Shown: in pieces, positions 5,072 to 34,511 of the stretch
Layout: each line of letters starts with the position of its first letter
How positions within the stretch are numbered: the stretch's first letter is position 1
IMG/VR virus record: IMGVR_UViG_3300045988_122711
From: a virus
Reading direction: 5' to 3' (one strand)
Length of the DNA: 64,000 bases
Program-made: the position numbers and the translations under genes
Notes under the pieces: generated by a model
Databases searched by the model: none
What the model saw: the letters and a program-made list of their open reading frames with translations, nothing else
Told to the model about the DNA's origin: nothing

Positions 5072-6259
5072 ATGAAACTCGTTGAAAGATATATAGTTAA
5101 AGACAACCGGTTTGAGGATATTTGCCTCAAATCCGGTTTGTTGTATAATTATGTTCTTTACAACATTCGTCAAGGAATTTTTTCTGGTAACTATTTAAAG
5201 GAATTTGATTTATCAAACAAACTTTGCAAAGAAAACCAATTCGATTTCAGGAATTTACCTAATCATGTTTCACAGCAGGTAATTAAACAGGTATTTAAAA
5301 ACATAAAATCCTGGATGAGATTAAAGAAAGATTTTGAAAAGAATCCTTCGAAATACGGTAATCATCGTCCTCATCTTCCTTCGTATAAGAAGGGCAAAAA
5401 ACAAAACATGGTTGTTTTTACCAACTGTGATTGTAGGATAAAAGATGATAATCATATCCATTTTGTCAAAAACATAATCAAACCGATCAAAACAAATGTA
5501 AATAAAGATGAATTAAAACAAGTTAGAATAATACCTCAAGCTACCTGTTATGTAGTAGAGGTAGTTTATGAAAGAAAGGAAATTGATCTTGGTTTAGATA
5601 AAGACAATTTTCTTTCGATTGATTTAGGATTGAATAATTTATGTTCATGTATTAGTAATGTAGTTAATTCTTTCATTATAAACGGACGAGTTATGAAATC
5701 AGTAAATCAGTGGTACAATAAGAAGAAAGCTAAGTTGATGTCTTTCATTGGTAATAAGGGAACTTCAAATAGAATAAGAAAAATTACTTTGTTTAGAAAT
5801 TGTTGGATAGAAGACAAATTGCACAAAATCAGTAGATACATTGTAGACTTTTGTAAATCTAACAATATAGGAACAATCATCATCGGATTAAACAAAGAAT
5901 GGAAAAACAAGATAAATATTGGTAAACGAAATAATCAACATTTTGTTTCTATTCCTCATTCTAAGTTGATTGAAAAGATTGTTTACAAAGCAAAACTTTT
6001 AGGAATAGAGGTAATTACTCATGAGGAATCCTATACATCAAAGATTGATCATCTTGCTTTTGAACCTCTAAAGAAACAGGAATCCTACTTAGGTAGAAGG
6101 AAGAAACGTGGATTATTCCAAAGTTCTGTTGGAAAGATATTAAATGCTGACATAAACGGAGCTATCGGGATAGCAAGAAAAGTAATCGGTGATTCTTTTA
6201 TTGGAAAGATAATCGATAGTGGATTTGTGTTTAATCCAGTTAGAGTAAATATTTTGTGA
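5072..6259 (+). CDS. tnpB: TnpB-like (IS605 OrfB / Cas12-ancestor) RuvC-fold protein; Zn-finger absent and RuvC-II Glu apparently replaced
   Basis: P.YKKGKK..F motif; RuvC-I SIDLGL; HEESYTSK (TSK motif); RuvC-III NADINGAIGIARK; no CxxC pairs between RuvC-II/III; expected hhhEDLN is TIIIGLNKEW. Confidence 0.7.
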   Translation: MKLVERYIVKDNRFEDICLKSGLLYNYVLYNIRQGIFSGNYLKEFDLSNKLCKENQFDFRNLPNHVSQQVIKQVFKNIKSWMRLKKDFEKNPSKYGNHRPHLPSYKKGKKQNMVVFTNCDCRIKDDNHIHFVKNIIKPIKTNVNKDELKQVRIIPQATCYVVEVVYERKEIDLGLDKDNFLSIDLGLNNLCSCISNVVNSFIINGRVMKSVNQWYNKKKAKLMSFIGNKGTSNRIRKITLFRNCWIEDKLHKISRYIVDFCKSNNIGTIIIGLNKEWKNKINIGKRNNQHFVSIPHSKLIEKIVYKAKLLGIEVITHEESYTSKIDHLAFEPLKKQESYLGRRKKRGLFQSSVGKILNADINGAIGIARKVIGDSFIGKIIDSGFVFNPVRVNIL

Positions 6260-6546
6260 TACAAGGTTGAATCTAATAGATAAAATGAGTAATTTTAATA
6301 ACATTTAAGTTTTTCATGGTATTAGTTTAGATTAGTGTAGATCAGGGCTCGCAGTGATGCGGGCCCTGGTTTGATTTAAAAAGTATTAAAATATTTGCTA
6401 TTTAAAATCCTGTTCCTATCTTTGCTCCAGAAACAATGAACAACGAGATCCCACCTCTGGTTGTTTGATGTTGAAAGATATTTTTGGCTCATTAGGGTTT
6501 GTCATAGTGGGATCTGACATTCTCTTTTGGGCCTATTTTTTTTATC
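6260..6546 (+). ncRNA. putative omega-RNA/right-end region of TnpB-like gene (structured non-coding)
   Basis: 287-nt non-coding region immediately 3' of tnpB-like ORF with 10-bp stem hairpin 6343-6368 and second pairing GAGATCCCAC/GTGGGATC; position matches TnpB omega-RNA architecture. Confidence 0.35.
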
Positions 6547-7431
6547 ATGGATAAAGTTTCTGTTTTTGAAAGTTCGGATTTTGGAGAGCTTAGAATTATT
6601 GTAGATCCAAAAGGAGATGTTTGGTTTGTGGCGTCAGATGTGGCTAAATCTCTTGGATATATAAATGCTAAAGATGCGGTAAAAAGACATGTAGATGATG
6701 ATGATTCTATGCTTTTGCAAGTATCTGATAATCAATGGGGCGTAAAACGATCTATATTGAAAACCAGATATATAGATAGTATAAGAATAATTAATGAATC
6801 TGGTTTATATTCTCTTATATTATCTTCAAAATTAGAGTCTGCTAAGAGATTTAAGAAATGGGTAACATCTGAGGTTCTTCCTTCTATTCGTAAAACAGGA
6901 GAATATAAAACAAGTTCCGGTGGAAAGGGAATTTTGGTCCCTGACTTTTCTAATCCGGCAGATGCAGCAAGAGCCTGGGCTGATCAGTATGAAGCTGCTC
7001 AGAGAGCTATAGCCGAAAAGTCGCAGGCAGAGGCAGAGAAGCAACAAGCTTTGAAAACAATAGAAGAACACAAGCCCGATGTAGAATTTGCCGAGTCTTT
7101 TAGGAAAGTAGACCATAACAATATGTGGCTGATTCGTGATATTGCAAAGAAGTTAGAGCAAAATGGTGTTATTATTGCTGAAAAGAATCTTCGCTCATTC
7201 CTTGAAGAAGCTAAATTCATGTTTAGGAACGGTCTTGGCAAATGGGAGCTATATAGTAATGTTGTAGTTAAAGGGTATGGAGTGTATAGGTCTTATTTCA
7301 TAGACAAGTATTCTGGTGATAGAATCAATCAACAAACCATATACATGACAGGCTCCGGATATGAAGTGACCTTAAATGGTATAAAAGGAAAACTCAAAAA
7401 TGTGTTTCTAAAATATGGCAAGTTTGCTTAA
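6547..7431 (+). CDS. Bro-N domain / KilA-C (ANT-like) phage antirepressor family protein
   Basis: N-term FGELRIIVDPKGDVWFVASDVAKSLGY...A...H is classic Bro-N; C-terminal half resembles KilA-C/ANT. Confidence 0.75.
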   Translation: MDKVSVFESSDFGELRIIVDPKGDVWFVASDVAKSLGYINAKDAVKRHVDDDDSMLLQVSDNQWGVKRSILKTRYIDSIRIINESGLYSLILSSKLESAKRFKKWVTSEVLPSIRKTGEYKTSSGGKGILVPDFSNPADAARAWADQYEAAQRAIAEKSQAEAEKQQALKTIEEHKPDVEFAESFRKVDHNNMWLIRDIAKKLEQNGVIIAEKNLRSFLEEAKFMFRNGLGKWELYSNVVVKGYGVYRSYFIDKYSGDRINQQTIYMTGSGYEVTLNGIKGKLKNVFLKYGKFA

Positions 7432-7443
7432 GTTTATTTACAG

Positions 7444-7482
7444 GTGGTGTTTTGAAAGAATAAAAAACACTACCTTTTTTTT
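7444..7482 (+). terminator. rho-independent terminator
   Basis: GGTGGTGTTTT...AAAACACTACC stem followed by T8. Confidence 0.7.
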
Positions 7483-7608
7483 GTTTCTGTTTTTGCTGAA
7501 AATATTTCTCTTCTATAAGAAATAAACACACCTATATTCCACCTTATAATCATGAACTTTGTTACGTGCTTCATGCACGTATGTTTAACAATTAAATACT
7601 ATAAAATT

Positions 7609-8616
7609 ATGGGTGGTGATAAAATCGTCCTTTTAGATGGAGCCGGGGCTAACGGTGGTGGTGCAGCCACTAACGGTCTTCTTTCAATGATTCCCGGCAT
7701 GTTTGCTAATTTGATAGGTGGTAATAAAATGGATCCGAATCTGGTGGCGGCTTTGATGAACGGTCGTAACAACCAGGACGGTTTCGGTGGGGCTAACGGT
7801 TGGTGGCTCTGGATAATTGTTTTGTTCTGGCTGTGGGGTGGACGCGGCTTCGGTAACGGTTTTGGAAATGGCGGTGATTGTTGTGCCAATGGTTTGCCGG
7901 CTCAGTTGAATAACGATTACGGTCGTGAACTTTTGATGCAGGCAATTCAAGGTAATCGTAGCGCCATAGATCAGATTGCTTCTGCTTTGAACTGTTCTAC
8001 TACTCAACTTCAGAACGCTATCTGCAACGTACAGGGTGCTATTGATAAAGTAGCTGGTCAGGTAGGTATGACTTCTCAGGCTGTTATCAACGCAGTTCAA
8101 CAACAAGGTTGTGAAATAGGAAATCAAATCAGCTCTTGCTGCTGCAATCTGAGTTCGTTGATCAATCAAAGCACTTGCCAGACTCAGGGAATGATTACTC
8201 AGCAAGGTTTTGATAACCAGCTTCGCACGTTGGAACAAACCAATATCTTGCAGAACGGTCTCAACCAAGGTCTGGCTAACAATCGTGAGCAAGCTACAAG
8301 CCAATTCAATATCTTGTCTGCGAAACTTGACGCCCAAACCGTTATGATCAACGACAAATTCTGTCAGTTGGAAATGAGGGAGATGCAGAACACTATTGCT
8401 CAACTTCGTGAAGAAAAAGCGGCTTTGACAGCTTCGGCATTATCTCAGCAACAAACCCAGAATATCGTTGGTCAATTACGCCCGACGGCCGTCCCGGCCT
8501 ACCCCTCTTGTTCTCCTTACCAGGCTTATACTTGGGGACAGGTATTCGGAGGAGGTTGCTGCAATAACGGATGTGGATGTAACAACGGATGTTGCAATAA
8601 CAACGCTGCTGTCTGA
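7609..8616 (+). CDS. Gly-rich / Asn-Gln-rich / Cys-rich low-complexity protein with one TM-like segment and CCNNGCGCNNGCCNNN C-terminus
   Basis: ORF with ATG at 7609 (track TTG/ATG 7552 upstream); GGxGxG N-term, WWLWIIVLFWLW hydrophobic segment, C-terminal AACGGATGT-type codon repeats. Confidence 0.45.
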   Translation: MGGDKIVLLDGAGANGGGAATNGLLSMIPGMFANLIGGNKMDPNLVAALMNGRNNQDGFGGANGWWLWIIVLFWLWGGRGFGNGFGNGGDCCANGLPAQLNNDYGRELLMQAIQGNRSAIDQIASALNCSTTQLQNAICNVQGAIDKVAGQVGMTSQAVINAVQQQGCEIGNQISSCCCNLSSLINQSTCQTQGMITQQGFDNQLRTLEQTNILQNGLNQGLANNREQATSQFNILSAKLDAQTVMINDKFCQLEMREMQNTIAQLREEKAALTASALSQQQTQNIVGQLRPTAVPAYPSCSPYQAYTWGQVFGGGCCNNGCGCNNGCCNNNAAV

Positions 8617-8639
8617 TTTTATTAAGAGAGGAGGCTAAT

Positions 8640-9053
8640 ATGGCTTGTGTTTCTAAAATAGGATCGTTGTATGAGATGGTTACGAAGAATGTTATTGTCA
8701 GTACGACAAATACAGTCTTCGGTATTAACCCACGGGCTTGGATCGCCCTTCCGTGTGAGGGTCTTATCCTTCTTAAGATAAGGCAAGTAGTCCCCACAGC
8801 CGGAAGTGCTCTACCGGTACAGATTGCGGTCCCGGCAAACAGCACAGTTTCAACAGTAGGAGCCGACACCTGTTGCCCGGTTACGGGAGTGAATGTCGTG
8901 AACCCTATTAACGTAGCTGTCACGGGTGCTGCTATGGTAAATGGCACAGAACGCCTTCTGTACTTCAATAAAGTTCGTGGCGTGTTAAGATTAATGGATT
9001 GTTGTGTTCCGACAACAACAGCCCAGGCGTCTGAAGTTAAAGCAGGTAAATGA
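8640..9053 (+). CDS. hypothetical protein (137 aa, Val/Thr/Cys-containing)
   Basis: ORF 24 nt after previous stop, followed by strong terminator. Confidence 0.45.
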   Translation: MACVSKIGSLYEMVTKNVIVSTTNTVFGINPRAWIALPCEGLILLKIRQVVPTAGSALPVQIAVPANSTVSTVGADTCCPVTGVNVVNPINVAVTGAAMVNGTERLLYFNKVRGVLRLMDCCVPTTTAQASEVKAGK

Positions 9054-12850: not shown

Positions 12851-13201
12851 ATGGGATTTGTAATCAAAAAGTCAATCACTTATAATATGATGGACGGCAA
12901 TCAGTTAGAGTATGTATTTGACAACATTAATTTAGATCATATCACATTTAAAGGTAATGGTAAAGAATCTTTTTCATTTAACAGAGCCCTTGTTGAAAAT
13001 TTAATTGAGACATTTGATACTATGCAGGATATATACTCTGATAATTACGGGATTAAGGTTTATACCGGTAATTGCATAATTCAACTGAATGTAAATCCAA
13101 AGAACTTAAGTGAATCCTTTTTTGACGTATATGATAGAGATGGGATGAAATTGATATATAGTATACAAAATAGTATTTTGAAAGAAATGTTTATAATATG
13201 A
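12851..13201 (+). CDS. hypothetical protein
   Basis: ORF. Confidence 0.4.
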   Translation: MGFVIKKSITYNMMDGNQLEYVFDNINLDHITFKGNGKESFSFNRALVENLIETFDTMQDIYSDNYGIKVYTGNCIIQLNVNPKNLSESFFDVYDRDGMKLIYSIQNSILKEMFII

Positions 13202-13518
13202 TTACCAAGCAGGACATACAAGCAGCAGCATCGTATATTTTCCAAAGTAGTTTTGTCTCGGAGGACCAGGCAAGGAAAGCGATGGTAAGAGCTGGCAATA
13301 ACGCTACCAAGATCCTCATCAAGACCTTCAGAGGAAAGTTGTTCAAGAAAGCTTTTGGAAGAGCTCGTAGAGGAAAGGATATCAGTTCTTTTGAAAGACA
13401 GGAAAAAGAAAGTGGTTTCAATTTTCTTTACAATTCTAATAATGGTAGTATGCAAAGCGGTCATGTAAAAATAGATGAAATTGGACTATTTAAACAAATA
13501 ATAAAGTCGGGTACGTAA
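13198..13518 (+). CDS. hypothetical basic protein
   Basis: ORF, ATGA overlap. Confidence 0.4.
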   Translation: MITKQDIQAAASYIFQSSFVSEDQARKAMVRAGNNATKILIKTFRGKLFKKAFGRARRGKDISSFERQEKESGFNFLYNSNNGSMQSGHVKIDEIGLFKQIIKSGT

Positions 13519-13547
13519 GTTATCCGACTTTTTCATATATTTGTGGC

Positions 13548-13871
13548 ATGGCACGAGGTTATTATTGGATACCGCAGACAGATGAAACGTTAAATGGCAT
13601 AAGCTATTACGTGACTAAGGTAGTAGGAGATATCACGTTTGATACTAAACGAAAAAGAATAGTGTTTCAAACTACCAGGTATTTCCCAGTAGGATCCGTA
13701 TTCCATTTTACTCACAACTGCTTTAAATACGTCATAACCTGCCGGCTCCGTAAGCCGGGGCTGTGGTATGAGGCAAGGAGGGAAGACTGCGGACCTATTG
13801 GACCGGATGATGTGGAAAGGTTCGAATCTGGAAGGTTTATTCATAGAAATGGGTACAAATATAATGCATAA
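13548..13871 (+). CDS. hypothetical protein
   Basis: ORF. Confidence 0.4.
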   Translation: MARGYYWIPQTDETLNGISYYVTKVVGDITFDTKRKRIVFQTTRYFPVGSVFHFTHNCFKYVITCRLRKPGLWYEARREDCGPIGPDDVERFESGRFIHRNGYKYNA

Positions 13872-30979: not shown

Positions 30980-31104
30980 AATGCTTGGTCAGTTCTTCTG
31001 GTTCTAAATCTTGTCCAAAATCCATGTTAAAAATATCGTAATTAGTAAAGCACTTAAAATCACTGTCCCTGCCGGCAGGAAATCTATGAATGCTGCTTTT
31101 GCTT

Positions 31105-31126
31105 CTTCAATTAGGCCCAAGTGTAA
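31105..31126. other. GGCCCAA...TTGGGCC hairpin just 3' of flotillin stop (T-run is on plus strand)
   Basis: 7-bp stem seen directly. Confidence 0.4.
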
Positions 31127-31142
31127 CCTTGGGCCATTGTAT

Positions 31143-32843
31143 TTATTTTTTGTCATCTCCTTTTAACTTCTTTAAAGTATCTGCAATCGGAAGCTGATCA
31201 ATGACTCCCAATGCCGGAGCGACGGTCTTGACAACATTGTTAAGGAAATTACCGGTACTGTTCTGACCGCCGTCAAATACCGTGATATTTCCGAGGTTAA
31301 TGTGCTCAAATGCCTTAACCTGTTCTCCGGCAATTTCTTTCCACTGATTAACCATCTTGTACTGGATGGCGATCTGAGGATTGGATTCTGCTGCTTCCAC
31401 CATAGCCTTAAATCCGTCGGCTTCTGCCATCAACGATTTTTTCTTACCTTCGGCTTCTGCCTCCAGCTTCATCTGAATAGCTTTTGCCTCCGCCTCAGCT
31501 TTTGCCAAATGTGCTGCTGCTTCTGCCTCAGCCCGGCGTTTGATCTTCTCTGCCTCAGCATCAGCTTGCAAGATAGCCTCTTCCTTCTGGGTTTCAGCCG
31601 GCACAATCTTTTCAGCCTTAAGCGCAGCCTGAACTTTCTTAGCCTTAGCTTCTTCCACTTCTTTGTCGGCAAGCTCTTTTGCTGTTTTTACAGCCGCTTC
31701 CGATTTAACTTTTTCTTCTCCGGCCTTCTTCTCTGATTGAGCTTTGATGATCTGTAGTTCTGATACTGATACAGCAACCTCCTTCTGGGCATTGTTGTAT
31801 CCTATAGACGCATTTTTCTCAGCCTCAGCCTTCTTAATCTGAGCTTCAGAGTCTTGTATTGCTATAGCTGCTTCCTTGTCAGCTTCAGCCTTATTCTTTC
31901 CGACTTCTTCCATTCTTTCAGCCTCGGCTTTATTTACTTCAAGTTCTGCCTTAGATCTTACGATCGCCGATTCCTTGTCGGTTAAAGTTTTTGCGATAAC
32001 CGCAGCCCTGTCTCTATCTGCTTGAGCTACACCGATCTGTTTCTCTTTATCGGTTAAAGCTAAAGCTATTTCTTTTTCTTTCTTCGTTTCAGCTACTATT
32101 GTCTCCTTTTCTTTTTCAGTACAAGCAATTTGAATCTCTTGTTCTTTTTTGGTATTAGCCACAGCCGTTTCTTTTTCCTTCTGCTGTACAGCAATTTTAA
32201 TAGCACCCAGCTTCTCCTGTTCTTCGATATTAGCCTGTGCCTCGTTCAGAGCCCTACTTTCAGCTTCCTTACCAAGGTTCATAATATAACCGGCTTCGTC
32301 TCTGATGTCACTGATGTTGATGTTCAGGAGGTAAAGACCTAACTTGTTAAGCTCGTTATCAATGTTCTTTCTCGCCTTATCCAAAAACTCATCCCTGTCA
32401 GAATTAAGTTTTTCGATTGTCATTTCAGCAATAATCAAACGCATCTGACCGTAAACGATGTCCGTAATAAGATTTTCAGTAGATTCGGTATTCATCCCCA
32501 AAAGTCTTTCTGCCGCATTTTGCATGATTTCGGGATTTGTACTGATAGCTACTGTAATGGTCGTAGGTACATCTACTCTAATATTCTGAGATGACAAAGC
32601 ACCGGTAAGCTTGCAATCTATTTGCATAGGCTCCATTGACAAAACATCATAGCTTTGAATAATAGGCAAGACAAATGCCGCTCCACCATGATATAATTTT
32701 GCCGACTTCTTTTCCCCACCTGTCTTACCGTAAACGACCAAGACCTGATTAGGCTTACATCTACGATACCTTGATAAGACTCCGATGATTGTCAAAATAA
32801 TCACTACAGCTAAGATAGCTGACACGTACATGATTGTTGTCAT
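31143..32843 (-). CDS. flotillin-like SPFH/band-7 protein (YqiK-type): TM anchor, SPFH domain, long EA-rich coiled coil
   Basis: N-terminal TM, SPFH-like core, KAEAE/AEAEA repeat region typical of flotillins. Confidence 0.75.
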   Translation of the reverse strand: MTTIMYVSAILAVVIILTIIGVLSRYRRCKPNQVLVVYGKTGGEKKSAKLYHGGAAFVLPIIQSYDVLSMEPMQIDCKLTGALSSQNIRVDVPTTITVAISTNPEIMQNAAERLLGMNTESTENLITDIVYGQMRLIIAEMTIEKLNSDRDEFLDKARKNIDNELNKLGLYLLNINISDIRDEAGYIMNLGKEAESRALNEAQANIEEQEKLGAIKIAVQQKEKETAVANTKKEQEIQIACTEKEKETIVAETKKEKEIALALTDKEKQIGVAQADRDRAAVIAKTLTDKESAIVRSKAELEVNKAEAERMEEVGKNKAEADKEAAIAIQDSEAQIKKAEAEKNASIGYNNAQKEVAVSVSELQIIKAQSEKKAGEEKVKSEAAVKTAKELADKEVEEAKAKKVQAALKAEKIVPAETQKEEAILQADAEAEKIKRRAEAEAAAHLAKAEAEAKAIQMKLEAEAEGKKKSLMAEADGFKAMVEAAESNPQIAIQYKMVNQWKEIAGEQVKAFEHINLGNITVFDGGQNSTGNFLNNVVKTVAPALGVIDQLPIADTLKKLKGDDKK

Positions 32844-32874
32844 AACTTTTAAAATTTAATTGTTGATAAAAAAA

Positions 32875-33369
32875 TTAGATACTTAATTCTCCTTCTTCAT
32901 ATTTTATATTCGCCTTGTCGCCGTTTTTGTAGGTTTTTCCAGACAAGCATCTTACTCTCATTTGCTCTTGTCTTCCATTTTTAGAAATATTTACCATATA
33001 ATGATTCTTCCCTGATCTAAATACTATCTCCACTTCTCTTCCGTTTAAATCTTCCGGACATTCGTACACCATTTCTTGCTTTAACTTAAGAAGTAACTTA
33101 TATACGTAAAACAAAACGATAAAGAAAAACGACCCTATCACAACCCCTACTAAATGGGAACCCGAAAAGTAAGTAGTCCAGCTATATCCAAGAATGAAAT
33201 GTGTTATGCCCTTGAATGATATGATGTCCGACAAAGACATGCTTAAATCAGAAGCACTGTCAATGTCAATATCCGTATCCAGATCAGATCCTAATATCGA
33301 CAACAAAAACTGTATAACAAAAGCAAATGACGCTATTAAAGCCATGCATAAAATTATATCACTTCCCAT
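32875..33369 (-). CDS. NfeD-like membrane protein (TM helices + C-terminal OB-fold), partner of SPFH protein
   Basis: polytopic N-term; C-term G.EV.IV...G...MRVRC...GDKA.I..EGEL pattern; adjacent to flotillin as in bacterial nfeD-SPFH operons. Confidence 0.5.
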   Translation of the reverse strand: MGSDIILCMALIASFAFVIQFLLSILGSDLDTDIDIDSASDLSMSLSDIISFKGITHFILGYSWTTYFSGSHLVGVVIGSFFFIVLFYVYKLLLKLKQEMVYECPEDLNGREVEIVFRSGKNHYMVNISKNGRQEQMRVRCLSGKTYKNGDKANIKYEEGELSI

Positions 33370-33610
33370 ATCCTTCTGTTATTGTTTTGTAAACAAGATC
33401 AGTCATATCTTTGATGGTCTCCATATCATAATCAATAATAACAATATTGAATTTTTGTTCCACCATCATTTCAAGTTCAATTTGATCAAGAGAATCTAAT
33501 CCAAGTTCTTTAAACGTCACATCTTCTTCATGAACTATATCCATTTCTGAATTAAGAAACTGAGTAATAATTATATCCTCTATAATCTTTCTGATTTCTA
33601 CTTTTTCCAT
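33359..33610 (-). CDS. acyl carrier protein
   Basis: ELGLDSLDQIELEMMVEQKF phosphopantetheine-attachment (DSL) motif, 83 aa acidic. Confidence 0.75.
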   Translation of the reverse strand: MEKVEIRKIIEDIIITQFLNSEMDIVHEEDVTFKELGLDSLDQIELEMMVEQKFNIVIIDYDMETIKDMTDLVYKTITEGYGK

Positions 33611-34311
33611 TGCTTTCTAATTTTGTTAAATAAATACGTTTTTATGTTTTTCAATCTCTCTTTGTCTGTTTCAGAACTTCCGGTAAACAAATAATCCGGA
33701 TTGCCTTTAGCCGGCGGCGTAGGCAATTTAGATACGGCAAACAACCAATCCATTTCCTTATTCTTCTTAGACTCCAAATAAGGCTCGGTAGCGATCTTGA
33801 ATTTTTCAGCTATTAAGTCGAAGAGCTTTGAGTTTTTAAGGTTCATATGGACTGAAAAAGCCTGAGAAGGCGGTTTCCATATAAAGTTACATAAGCTCAT
33901 TGTATAATCTCCTGACTCTGCTATATAAGATTCCGTTACCTGAAGTATGACCTCTTTCTTGAATGAGGTGTTACCCATAAACCAACACAACCTGGATTCC
34001 GCTTCTTTTCTGCTGACACCTATGTCTTTTGAATACGATTCGTACATTCCTATCATAATCTTCAACGTTTCCAGAACCTCGTCTGTCATTTCCGGTGTCT
34101 CTATATAATTTACAAAAGACGTTCCTTTGTTGGTTAATCTCATCACGCCTGATTTTAATTTCTCAACCAGGCCAAGCTCTATATACCTCCCAGCATCTTC
34201 TTCCGGCATGGCTTCGATCATAACCGTATCCTTCTGTCTTATGGCAAGAAGATTAGCAAGATCATTAGGGGTCATGTCTGATGCTGCAAGTTGTCTGAAA
34301 TTGATGTACAT
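33598..34311 (-). CDS. hypothetical protein
   Basis: ORF overlapping ACP start. Confidence 0.45.
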   Translation of the reverse strand: MYINFRQLAASDMTPNDLANLLAIRQKDTVMIEAMPEEDAGRYIELGLVEKLKSGVMRLTNKGTSFVNYIETPEMTDEVLETLKIMIGMYESYSKDIGVSRKEAESRLCWFMGNTSFKKEVILQVTESYIAESGDYTMSLCNFIWKPPSQAFSVHMNLKNSKLFDLIAEKFKIATEPYLESKKNKEMDWLFAVSKLPTPPAKGNPDYLFTGSSETDKERLKNIKTYLFNKIRKQWKK

Positions 34312-34313
34312 TT

Positions 34314-34511
34314 TTAATCAGCTTTAATAAAAATAACATTCTTGTTATTTTGTCTATCAACATGTCCACATGGACCAACAATTATGTCTGTACATGAACA
34401 AGAATCGTAATCTTCGAATATACACCTATCGCATGTATCACCTTCCACACATTTTAATCTTACAAGTCCGGCATCAAATACTTCTCCTACTTTAAATTCC
34501 TTCTTTTCCAT
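34314..34511 (-). CDS. small Cys-rich protein
   Basis: ORF; C..C...C.C pattern. Confidence 0.3.
   Translation of the reverse strand: MEKKEFKVGEVFDAGLVRLKCVEGDTCDRCIFEDYDSCSCTDIIVGPCGHVDRQNNKNVIFIKAD

Follow-up and report, generated by a model that had tools for sequence, protein, structure and literature searches.

A two-gene NfeD2-flotillin operon of apparent Bacteroidales origin in a phage lineage of the human gut

The locus and its source phage

The window analyzed here, a 64,000-nucleotide (nt) stretch of the virus record IMGVR_UViG_3300045988_122711, carries four consecutive open reading frames (ORFs) on its minus strand between positions 31143 and 34311. In order of transcription, these encode a 237-amino acid (aa) protein with a MarR-like winged-helix model (33598-34311), an acyl carrier protein (ACP) of 83 aa (33359-33610), a small polytopic membrane protein of 164 aa (32875-33369) and a flotillin of 566 aa (31143-32843). 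A first-pass annotation made from the sequence had located the four ORFs at exactly these coordinates and had proposed that flotillin, an NfeD-like protein and the ACP, perhaps with the 237-aa protein as partner enzyme of the ACP, form a functional cluster for remodelling or lipid modification of the host membrane. The gene positions were confirmed, but the sequence comparisons described below point to a different unit, a bicistronic NfeD2-flotillin operon that an ancestor of the phage captured from a Bacteroidales host. The ACP and 237-aa genes are neighbors unrelated to this operon. The unit is two genes and not three, because the ACP and 237-aa genes are absent from the host operons and from a second phage clade, and are present without flotillin in a sister phage.

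The 237-aa and ACP genes overlap by 13 nt and the ACP and 164-aa genes by 11 nt, and a 31-nt spacer read from the minus strand (32844-32874) separates the stop codon of the NfeD-like gene from the start of the flotillin gene. The cluster lies within a long leftward gene block, with a DnaB-like helicase upstream and a PD-(D/E)XK exonuclease downstream, and the primase and helicase genes share the strand of the flotillin pair. Over 8 kb, the window is 98% identical to GenBank OR575929.1, the 151-kb genome of phage csAssE-Sib from the human gut. The depositors annotated in it ring and muzzle proteins, a diversity-generating retroelement (DGR) and tRNAs, and by these features the phage would be crAss-like. 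The GenBank entry calls the flotillin a 'flotillin family protein', the 164-aa protein a 'transmembrane protein' and the ACP an 'acyl carrier protein'. The flotillin and ACP labels were thus already known, and what is new is that the 164-aa 'transmembrane protein' is an NfeD-type partner. The literature search returned no paper on csAssE-Sib, on flotillin in crAss-like phages or on the function of phage-encoded flotillins. The possibility that the cluster is host-derived flanking DNA in an assembly chimera had been raised with the first-pass annotation. It is contradicted by the recurrence of this arrangement, junctions included, in the complete GenBank genome and on 80 or more independent IMG/VR contigs, the longest of 155 kb.

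The 566-aa flotillin

Judged by its profile matches, the 566-aa protein is a flotillin of the SPFH2 type, as it had first been called. It matches Pfam Band_7 (PF01145) over residues 30-211 with 91.4 bits against a cut-off of 23.6 (E 9.4e-26) and Pfam Flot (PF15975) over residues 450-559 with 38 bits against a cut-off of 27 (E 2.1e-9). A hydrophobic stretch (VSAILAVVIILTIIGVL) at about residues 5-24 reads as an N-terminal membrane anchor, and a long EA/K-rich coiled coil occupies about residues 212-450, between the SPFH and C-terminal domains. The protein is not a FloT orthologue, as its score against the FloT equivalog NCBIfam NF058507 was 144.6 bits and the cut-off of 700 was not reached. Identity to E. 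coli YqiK is only 24%.

The nearest solved relatives are the eukaryotic flotillin-2 and flotillin-1 of the flotillin-1/2 cage (9bq2, 9l3g), with E values of 1e-23 to 5e-19 and the 1e-23 match extending over residues 30-305. Eukaryotic and phage flotillins have a common plan of SPFH domain, coiled coil and C-terminal domain. Eukaryotic flotillins have neither a transmembrane (TM) anchor nor an NfeD partner (PMC12624060), whereas the phage flotillin has both. Flotillin-1/2 and other SPFH proteins oligomerize into cage-like scaffolds (PMC12624060), and by analogy the phage flotillin may also form a cage.

The 164-aa NfeD-like partner

The proposal that the 164-aa protein is NfeD-like stood on structure and gene order but not on the expected profile. 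No Pfam, NCBIfam or PHROG family matched the protein, including PF01957 (at E<=0.1), YqiJ_N (PF21001) and YqiJ_OB (PF07290). Among 71 sampled members of its own family, one matched PF01957 (E 6e-5), and the Bacteroides homologues of the 164-aa protein matched neither PF01957 nor the YqiJ models. E. coli YqiJ matches both YqiJ models (1e-15, 2e-14), whereas the phage protein and four homologues, three from Bacteroidales and one from a likely phage contig (L069), match neither. Alignment of the 164-aa family to E. coli YqiJ with hhalign was insignificant (probability 1.4%), phmmer searches of the PDB with the 164-aa protein gave chance matches only, and the family profile searched against PDB sequences had YuaF as its only non-TM match, at a sub-threshold E of 0.66. 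A word-indexed protein search returned close phage relatives only. An exhaustive profile search at E<=1e-3 collected a family of 420 proteins of approximately 160-180 aa each, and this defines an unannotated family, absent from Pfam, of flotillin partners in Bacteroidales.

Members of this family share a plan of TM1, an acidic DxDxDxD loop, the motif SFKGxxHF, TM2, TM3, the motif LxGR and a beta domain. The phage protein follows the same order with TM1, a DTDIDID loop, SFKGITHF, TM2, TM3, LNGRE and an OB-like beta-barrel (residues 112-163), and every invariant or near-invariant residue of the family is kept. The AlphaFold2 (AF2) model of the protein has three TM helices and a six-stranded C-terminal barrel, with a mean pLDDT of 73.5 and values of 83-89 in the C-terminal beta domain. 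Its best structural matches are the NfeD proteins YbbJ, YuaF and PH1510-C. The first-ranked match by Foldseek among 350,542 PDB chains is YbbJ (8z5g_AA; E 0.03, probability 0.96, 119 columns), which aligns over the TM region and the OB domain of the model. The structural scores for an NfeD-like identity are individually modest but are in agreement.

NfeD proteins of this kind are known from other bacteria. In yuaF-floT (yuaG) of B. subtilis and yqiJ-yqiK of E. coli, a small polytopic OB-domain protein is encoded directly upstream of the flotillin, as it is here. YuaF and YqiJ have approximately 21% identity to canonical NfeD and, like the phage partner, are recognizable by structure and operon position and not by sequence (PMC2636767). 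SPFH2 proteins co-evolve and move laterally together with such weakly conserved NfeD2 partners (PMC2636767). The phage pair differs from yqiJ-yqiK in the low identity of its flotillin to YqiK (24%, as given above) and in a partner that matches no YqiJ or NfeD Pfam model. In the phage protein, N-terminal TM helices are followed by an OB-fold barrel and the gene lies beside a co-evolving SPFH gene, which are the structural and operon features of NfeD2. Structure and gene order together support the assignment of the 164-aa protein as an NfeD2/YuaF/YqiJ-type flotillin partner. In the solved E. coli QmcA-YbbJ complex (8z5g), an NfeD protein is bound to an SPFH assembly, and by analogy the OB domain of the phage partner may contact its flotillin. 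However, QmcA is of the stomatin type (SPFH1), unlike the phage flotillin, and the match to YbbJ is weak (8% identity at the E value given above).

The Bacteroidales operon and the origin of the pair

The analogy to the yqiJK and nfeD-SPFH operons drawn in the first-pass annotation proved stronger than proposed, as a direct homologue of the phage operon is present throughout the Bacteroidales. A scan of one genome per prokaryotic species, with the conserved motif taken from a 12-sequence family alignment, located 80 loci, nearly all in Bacteroides, Phocaeicola, Parabacteroides, Prevotella and Paludibacteraceae. The partner homologues at these loci are 33-41% identical to the 164-aa protein, and a flotillin gene lies directly downstream on the same strand in all 80. 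The gap between partner stop and flotillin start is mostly about 20-50 nt in the bacteria, and the 31-nt spacer of the phage is of the same class. By tblastn, the phage flotillin is 62-66% identical to flotillins of Bacteroidaceae, Tannerellaceae and Prevotella and colinear with them, in the case of Bacteroides over residues 4-560. In operons such as those of Bacteroides finegoldii, Phocaeicola vulgatus, Parabacteroides goldsteinii and Prevotella sp., both genes are homologous to those of the phage and their order and strand are alike, and the domain architecture and the partner motifs (DxDxDxD, SFKGxxHF, LxGR) are shared. Unlike the Bacteroidales operon, the phage pair sits in a replication block and is flanked by the ACP gene and by an ORF for a 50-aa protein with one predicted TM segment. 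Homologues of the ACP and of the 237-aa, 200-aa, 119-aa and 50-aa phage proteins were found at none of the 80 bacterial loci.

Neighbor-joining (NJ) trees of the partner and of the flotillin both place the phage branches inside the Bacteroidales. Identity between phage and bacteria is approximately 40% for the partner and 69% for the flotillin, and between P. vulgatus and Bacteroides it is 50% and 72%. As the ratio of the two divergences is the same as between bacterial genera, the two genes were transferred together and have co-evolved. Identity to the host flotillins varies by domain, with 77-81% in the SPFH domain, 74-79% in the C-terminal domain and 53-57% in the coiled coil, which is 33 residues longer in the phage protein.

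Selection and natural variants in the phage lineage

The ratio of nonsynonymous to synonymous polymorphism (pN/pS) was pooled over 80 close relatives compared with the window, a single shared reference which makes the comparisons not independent of one another. This pooled ratio replaced dN/dS, because dS is saturated when the window is compared with the sub-lineage of 82% flotillin identity. The values were 0.050 for the NfeD-like partner and 0.041 for flotillin (74 close relatives). The DnaB-like helicase (0.059) and the exonuclease (0.077) had similar values, and the 237-aa protein had 0.026 and the ACP 0.406. Intact genes were present in 77 (partner) and 74 (flotillin) of the 80 close relatives, and the pair is kept in sub-lineages with flotillins only 82% or 76% identical to that of the window. 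The NfeD-flotillin pair of this phage is under strong purifying selection.

Several rare variants of the pair occur. Some flotillin alleles (P0148, P0153, P0151, P0165) have in-frame deletions of 85 to approximately 156 residues in the EA-repeat coiled coil (about residues 305-460), with end points at short repeats (AEAE, EE). One of these, P0148 (481 aa), recurs on 7 contigs that come from three data sources, and an assembly artefact is therefore unlikely. If the coiled coil sets the height of a cage, such alleles would give much shorter assemblies. There are also rare fusions (P0027, P0031, P0028, P0033, P0046, P0047) of the N-terminal half of the NfeD-like protein to the last ~50 residues of flotillin (32875-33369 joined to 31143-~31330), in which most of both genes is deleted, and this implies that some conditions permit the loss of the module. 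At the flotillin stop codon (~31143-31150) there is a run of six A residues (A6), and rare A5 or A7 alleles (P0091, P0107, P0151) fuse flotillin to the frame of the 50-aa ORF or to the third frame. Programmed frameshifting or phase variation at this run was considered and rejected, as 80 of 83 loci have A6 and the fusions look like errors or rare alleles.

A second phage clade and other phage SPFH genes

A search of viral contigs with a diverse flotillin alignment identified a second, unrelated clade of gut phages with 52 IMG/VR contigs (L176-L227, L256-L308), mostly of 165-193 kb. Flotillin in this clade has 657 aa and is 54-100% identical within the clade and approximately 40% identical to that of the window. 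An NfeD-like gene lies directly upstream of it at all 52 loci, and an ACP or 237-aa gene at none. Comparison of 22 kb of second-clade context with the whole 64-kb window showed nothing else in common. The genes of this context are small ORFans, all on one strand, together with an AAA ATPase and a few PHROGs that have no assigned function, and replication genes are lacking for 10 kb around the pair. Two genome contigs counted among the 80 'bacterial' loci (L069 and L073) carry the second-clade flotillin. They are filed under metagenome-assembled genomes (MAGs), one of Clostridium (contig of 153 kb, flotillin 100% identical) and one of Gastranaerophilales (contig of 140 kb, 84%), and are probably mis-binned phage contigs. 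In NJ trees the second clade falls outside the group of Bacteroidales plus phage. This placement points to a capture of its own, but a faster evolutionary rate could produce it as well.

Deposited phages rarely carry such genes. Flotillin matches were obtained in 11 of 50,697 phage records, and the only full-length match was csAssE-Sib. A protein of Vibrio phage KIT04 that is annotated as flotillin family has 29% identity. SPFH ORFs were noted in 2006 in the T4-like phages 44RR, Aeh1 and RB43 (PMC1524935), and T4-like phages gave no match to the phage flotillin in the deposited-phage search. KIT04 and the T4-like phages resemble the present phage in carrying SPFH-family genes but have no annotated NfeD-type partner.

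The acyl carrier protein

The identification of the 83-aa protein as an ACP held. It scores 27.7 bits with Pfam PP-binding (PF00550), for which the cut-off is 20.8, and matches phrog_5934 ('acyl carrier protein') with 9.5e-11, and all 63 of its matches in the PDB are ACPs. The NCBIfam ACP equivalog and subfamily cut-offs were not reached (37 vs 71), and the protein is therefore a divergent ACP. Its LGLDSLD segment aligns with LGADSLD of E. coli AcpP. The DSL serine is kept in all full-length ACP alleles of this lineage and of the related sub-lineages L166 and L167.

The evolution of the ACP is unlike that of the genes around it. Its pN/pS is 5-15 times that of every neighboring gene, and between sub-lineages it is 37% identical where the neighboring genes are 76-84% identical. 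Variation clusters at the position that follows the serine (L/V/I/A) and along helix II (QIELEMM, RIELDVM, RIELDAM), the helix by which ACPs dock on partner enzymes. Truncated (nonsense) alleles occur at approximately 7 of 88 related loci. The ACP-like protein of sister phage L170 has DDLD for DSLD, with aspartate in place of the serine to which phosphopantetheine is attached, and its sequence suggests that it can act without the prosthetic group.

A phosphopantetheinyl transferase (PPTase) or acyltransferase encoded nearby had been suggested as something to look for. Family scans found no PPTase, acyltransferase, ketosynthase (KAS) or acyl-ACP synthetase among the ten gene products of ~29.6-36.3 kb. 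No ACP-related enzyme was found among the leftward ORFs from ~37.2 kb to the end of the window, and none is annotated in the 151-kb reference genome, whose GenBank annotation alone was the basis for judging the leftward ORFs of ~21.5-29.5 kb and the plus-strand genes. These results point to an independently acquired, fast-evolving accessory gene whose product would depend on the host AcpS. The ACP gene adjoins the flotillin operon and is not evolutionarily part of it.

The 237-aa protein and the replication-block slot

The 237-aa protein had been considered a possible partner enzyme of the ACP, and its predicted structure does not bear this out. Its AF2 model (pLDDT 87.7) shows a MarR-like winged helix at the N terminus and a helical domain at the C terminus, with no match to an enzyme fold, and no Pfam, PHROG or NCBIfam family matched the sequence. 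Homologues with 36-44% identity in more distant phages lie among replication and recombination genes, near DnaB and/or a PD-(D/E)XK nuclease or DEAD helicase, and no recognizable ACP or flotillin is beside them. The protein thus models as a conserved winged-helix member of a replication/regulatory block, and not as an ACP-modifying enzyme.

The sister phage L170 (154 kb) is informative for this part of the genome. At 5675-8946 it has a homologue of the 237-aa protein with 60% identity, followed by the ACP-like gene. The slot of the NfeD-flotillin pair is taken up by genes for a DNA methylase and two radical-SAM enzymes, after which comes the exonuclease. The position of the pair therefore behaves as a cargo insertion site. 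The flotillin-NfeD-ACP trio is carried by three sub-lineages of this phage, but not by L170, which is without flotillin, nor by the second clade, which is without ACP.

Other features of the locus

The 50-aa ORF with one predicted TM segment (31004-31156, minus strand) overlaps the flotillin stop codon. Homologues were found by tblastn at 81 of 88 related viral loci and at 0 of 80 bacterial loci, so the ORF is a conserved feature of the phage lineage that host operons lack. It has no Pfam or PHROG family match, and a perfect 8-bp hairpin (GGCCCAAG...CTTGGGCC) lies inside it. On the other side of the cluster, the leftward gene block has a 65-aa Cys-rich protein with the motif C-D-R-C-I-F (34314-34511). 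There are at least two paralogues of it in the leftward block of the window (upstream of 49 kb), and a homologue with 43% identity is encoded just upstream of the NfeD-like gene of the second clade (L073, 2754-2957). A scan for sigma-70 promoters and terminators gave nothing above chance, with a consensus that is not that of Bacteroidales. PADLOC assigned the flotillin, its partner and the ACP to no defence system and gave a chance-level LmuC match for the 237-aa protein.

TnpB/IS605-family genes and a DGR (VR/TR and reverse transcriptase, by the tail-fibre gene) are present in OR575929.1 and its relatives (OR575929.1 58986-60125, 64190-65413 and 45751-47816; L166 13180-13707; L173 9792-10696). 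The TnpB copies are at differing positions among relatives, which implies that mobile elements are active in the phage lineage. In L167, whose flotillin is 82% identical to that of the window, an 820-aa NAMPT/NAPRTase-family gene (NAD salvage) lies at 12880-13707, a few kb downstream of the flotillin block. Other relatives have TnpB in the same slot, which is thus a site of variable auxiliary cargo.

Proposed role and rival explanations

It is judged slightly more probable than the contrary that the captured NfeD2-flotillin operon supplies or augments flotillin function, and with it membrane homeostasis, during infection. The tightly packed leftward block suggests that the pair would be expressed together with the replication block. 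The flotillin would anchor in the host cytoplasmic membrane via its N-terminal hydrophobic segment and, as other SPFH proteins do, could oligomerize via its coiled coil and C-terminal domain into a cage or scaffold. The 164-aa partner would be held in the enclosed membrane patch by its three TM helices, with its cytoplasmic OB-like domain in contact with the flotillin. In this way the phage would add to membrane fluidity and integrity and to the organization of membrane-protein complexes, and the envelope would stay functional, with premature lysis perhaps delayed, until progeny are complete. In B. subtilis, FloA and FloT control membrane fluidity and are induced by sigma-W, which answers membrane stress, phage infection included (PMC8581546). 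Some points weigh against this role. Membrane homeostasis is one of several benefits compatible with the data. The variants that have lost most of both genes, or large parts of the coiled coil, imply that the phage has no strict need of the module. As the 237-aa, ACP and NfeD-like genes overlap so closely, their translation could be coupled, and some functional link with the ACP is possible.

Subversion of the host is an unlikely alternative. The phage flotillin would co-assemble with or replace the host flotillin and redirect host assemblies, and a blocked membrane-stress or abortive-infection response, altered FtsH-type proteolysis or superinfection exclusion are possible outcomes. It would be favored by SPFH and C-terminal domains that are 74-81% identical to those of the host beside a diverged and longer coiled coil, by the place of flotillins in stress regulons that answer phage infection (PMC8581546), by the pairing of SPFH complexes with FtsH (PMC2636767) and by the independent carriage of the pair in two phage clades. 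However, the flotillin comes with its own cognate partner under equally strong selection, which fits a self-sufficient module better than a poison subunit, and PADLOC gave no defence-family match. Alternatively, the scaffold could hold the replisome, or the machinery for assembly and packaging, at a defined membrane patch. Such a role would suit a location flanked by the genes of the DnaB-like helicase and the PD-(D/E)XK exonuclease, with the primase and helicases encoded on this strand. Such a platform is improbable, as the same slot in the sister phage holds a DNA methylase and radical-SAM genes and is a cargo site rather than a functionally coherent position, and the pair of the second clade lies among ORFans away from replication genes.

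The single lipid-acylating or membrane-remodelling unit of flotillin, NfeD, ACP and perhaps a 237-aa enzyme, as first proposed, is very improbable on the co-occurrence data. In its favor, the four genes adjoin one another, with overlaps of 11-13 nt, and three sub-lineages of this phage keep both the arrangement and the DSL serine. Yet the ACP and 237-aa genes are missing from 80/80 host operons and 52/52 second-clade loci, an ACP-like gene and a 237-aa homologue occur together without flotillin, and the 237-aa gene occurs without a recognizable adjacent ACP. The winged-helix fold of the 237-aa protein without an enzyme match, the relaxed pN/pS of the ACP (0.41), its nonsense alleles and the Ser-to-Asp change in the sister lineage also speak against it, as does the lack of a PPTase, acyltransferase or KAS among the scanned proteins and in the annotation of the reference genome. 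That the pair is host DNA mis-assembled to phage, or a decaying passenger without function, has a negligible probability. The genes are of host origin and there are rare deletion and truncation alleles, but identity to any bacterial homologue is only 62-69% at the amino acid level, so the DNA is not recent host DNA, the same junctions recur in the complete genome and the independent contigs, and pN/pS is 0.04-0.05. A more speculative and improbable proposal is that the two captures gave rise to a virus-controlled SPFH-cage compartment (for lysis timing, as an abortive-infection shield or for virion production), with the ACP-like protein as an ACP mimic that binds host enzymes. The mimic is suggested because serine is replaced by aspartate in the sister phage and because variation is concentrated in the partner-recognition helix II.

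Significance

Flotillin-NfeD operons are widespread in bacteria and their physiological role is poorly defined. The phage pair is compact and self-contained and would be useful for dissecting the joint action of SPFH and NfeD proteins. Its interest lies in selection, abundance in the gut and apparent repeated capture by large phages, and not in a new molecular mechanism. As the pair is under strong selection both here and in the second clade, flotillin dosage or activity would appear to matter during infection of Bacteroidales. The phage lineage is apparently abundant in human gut metagenomes, with one protein cluster of more than 2,400 member sequences, and any effect of the pair on the host membrane would therefore be ecologically relevant.

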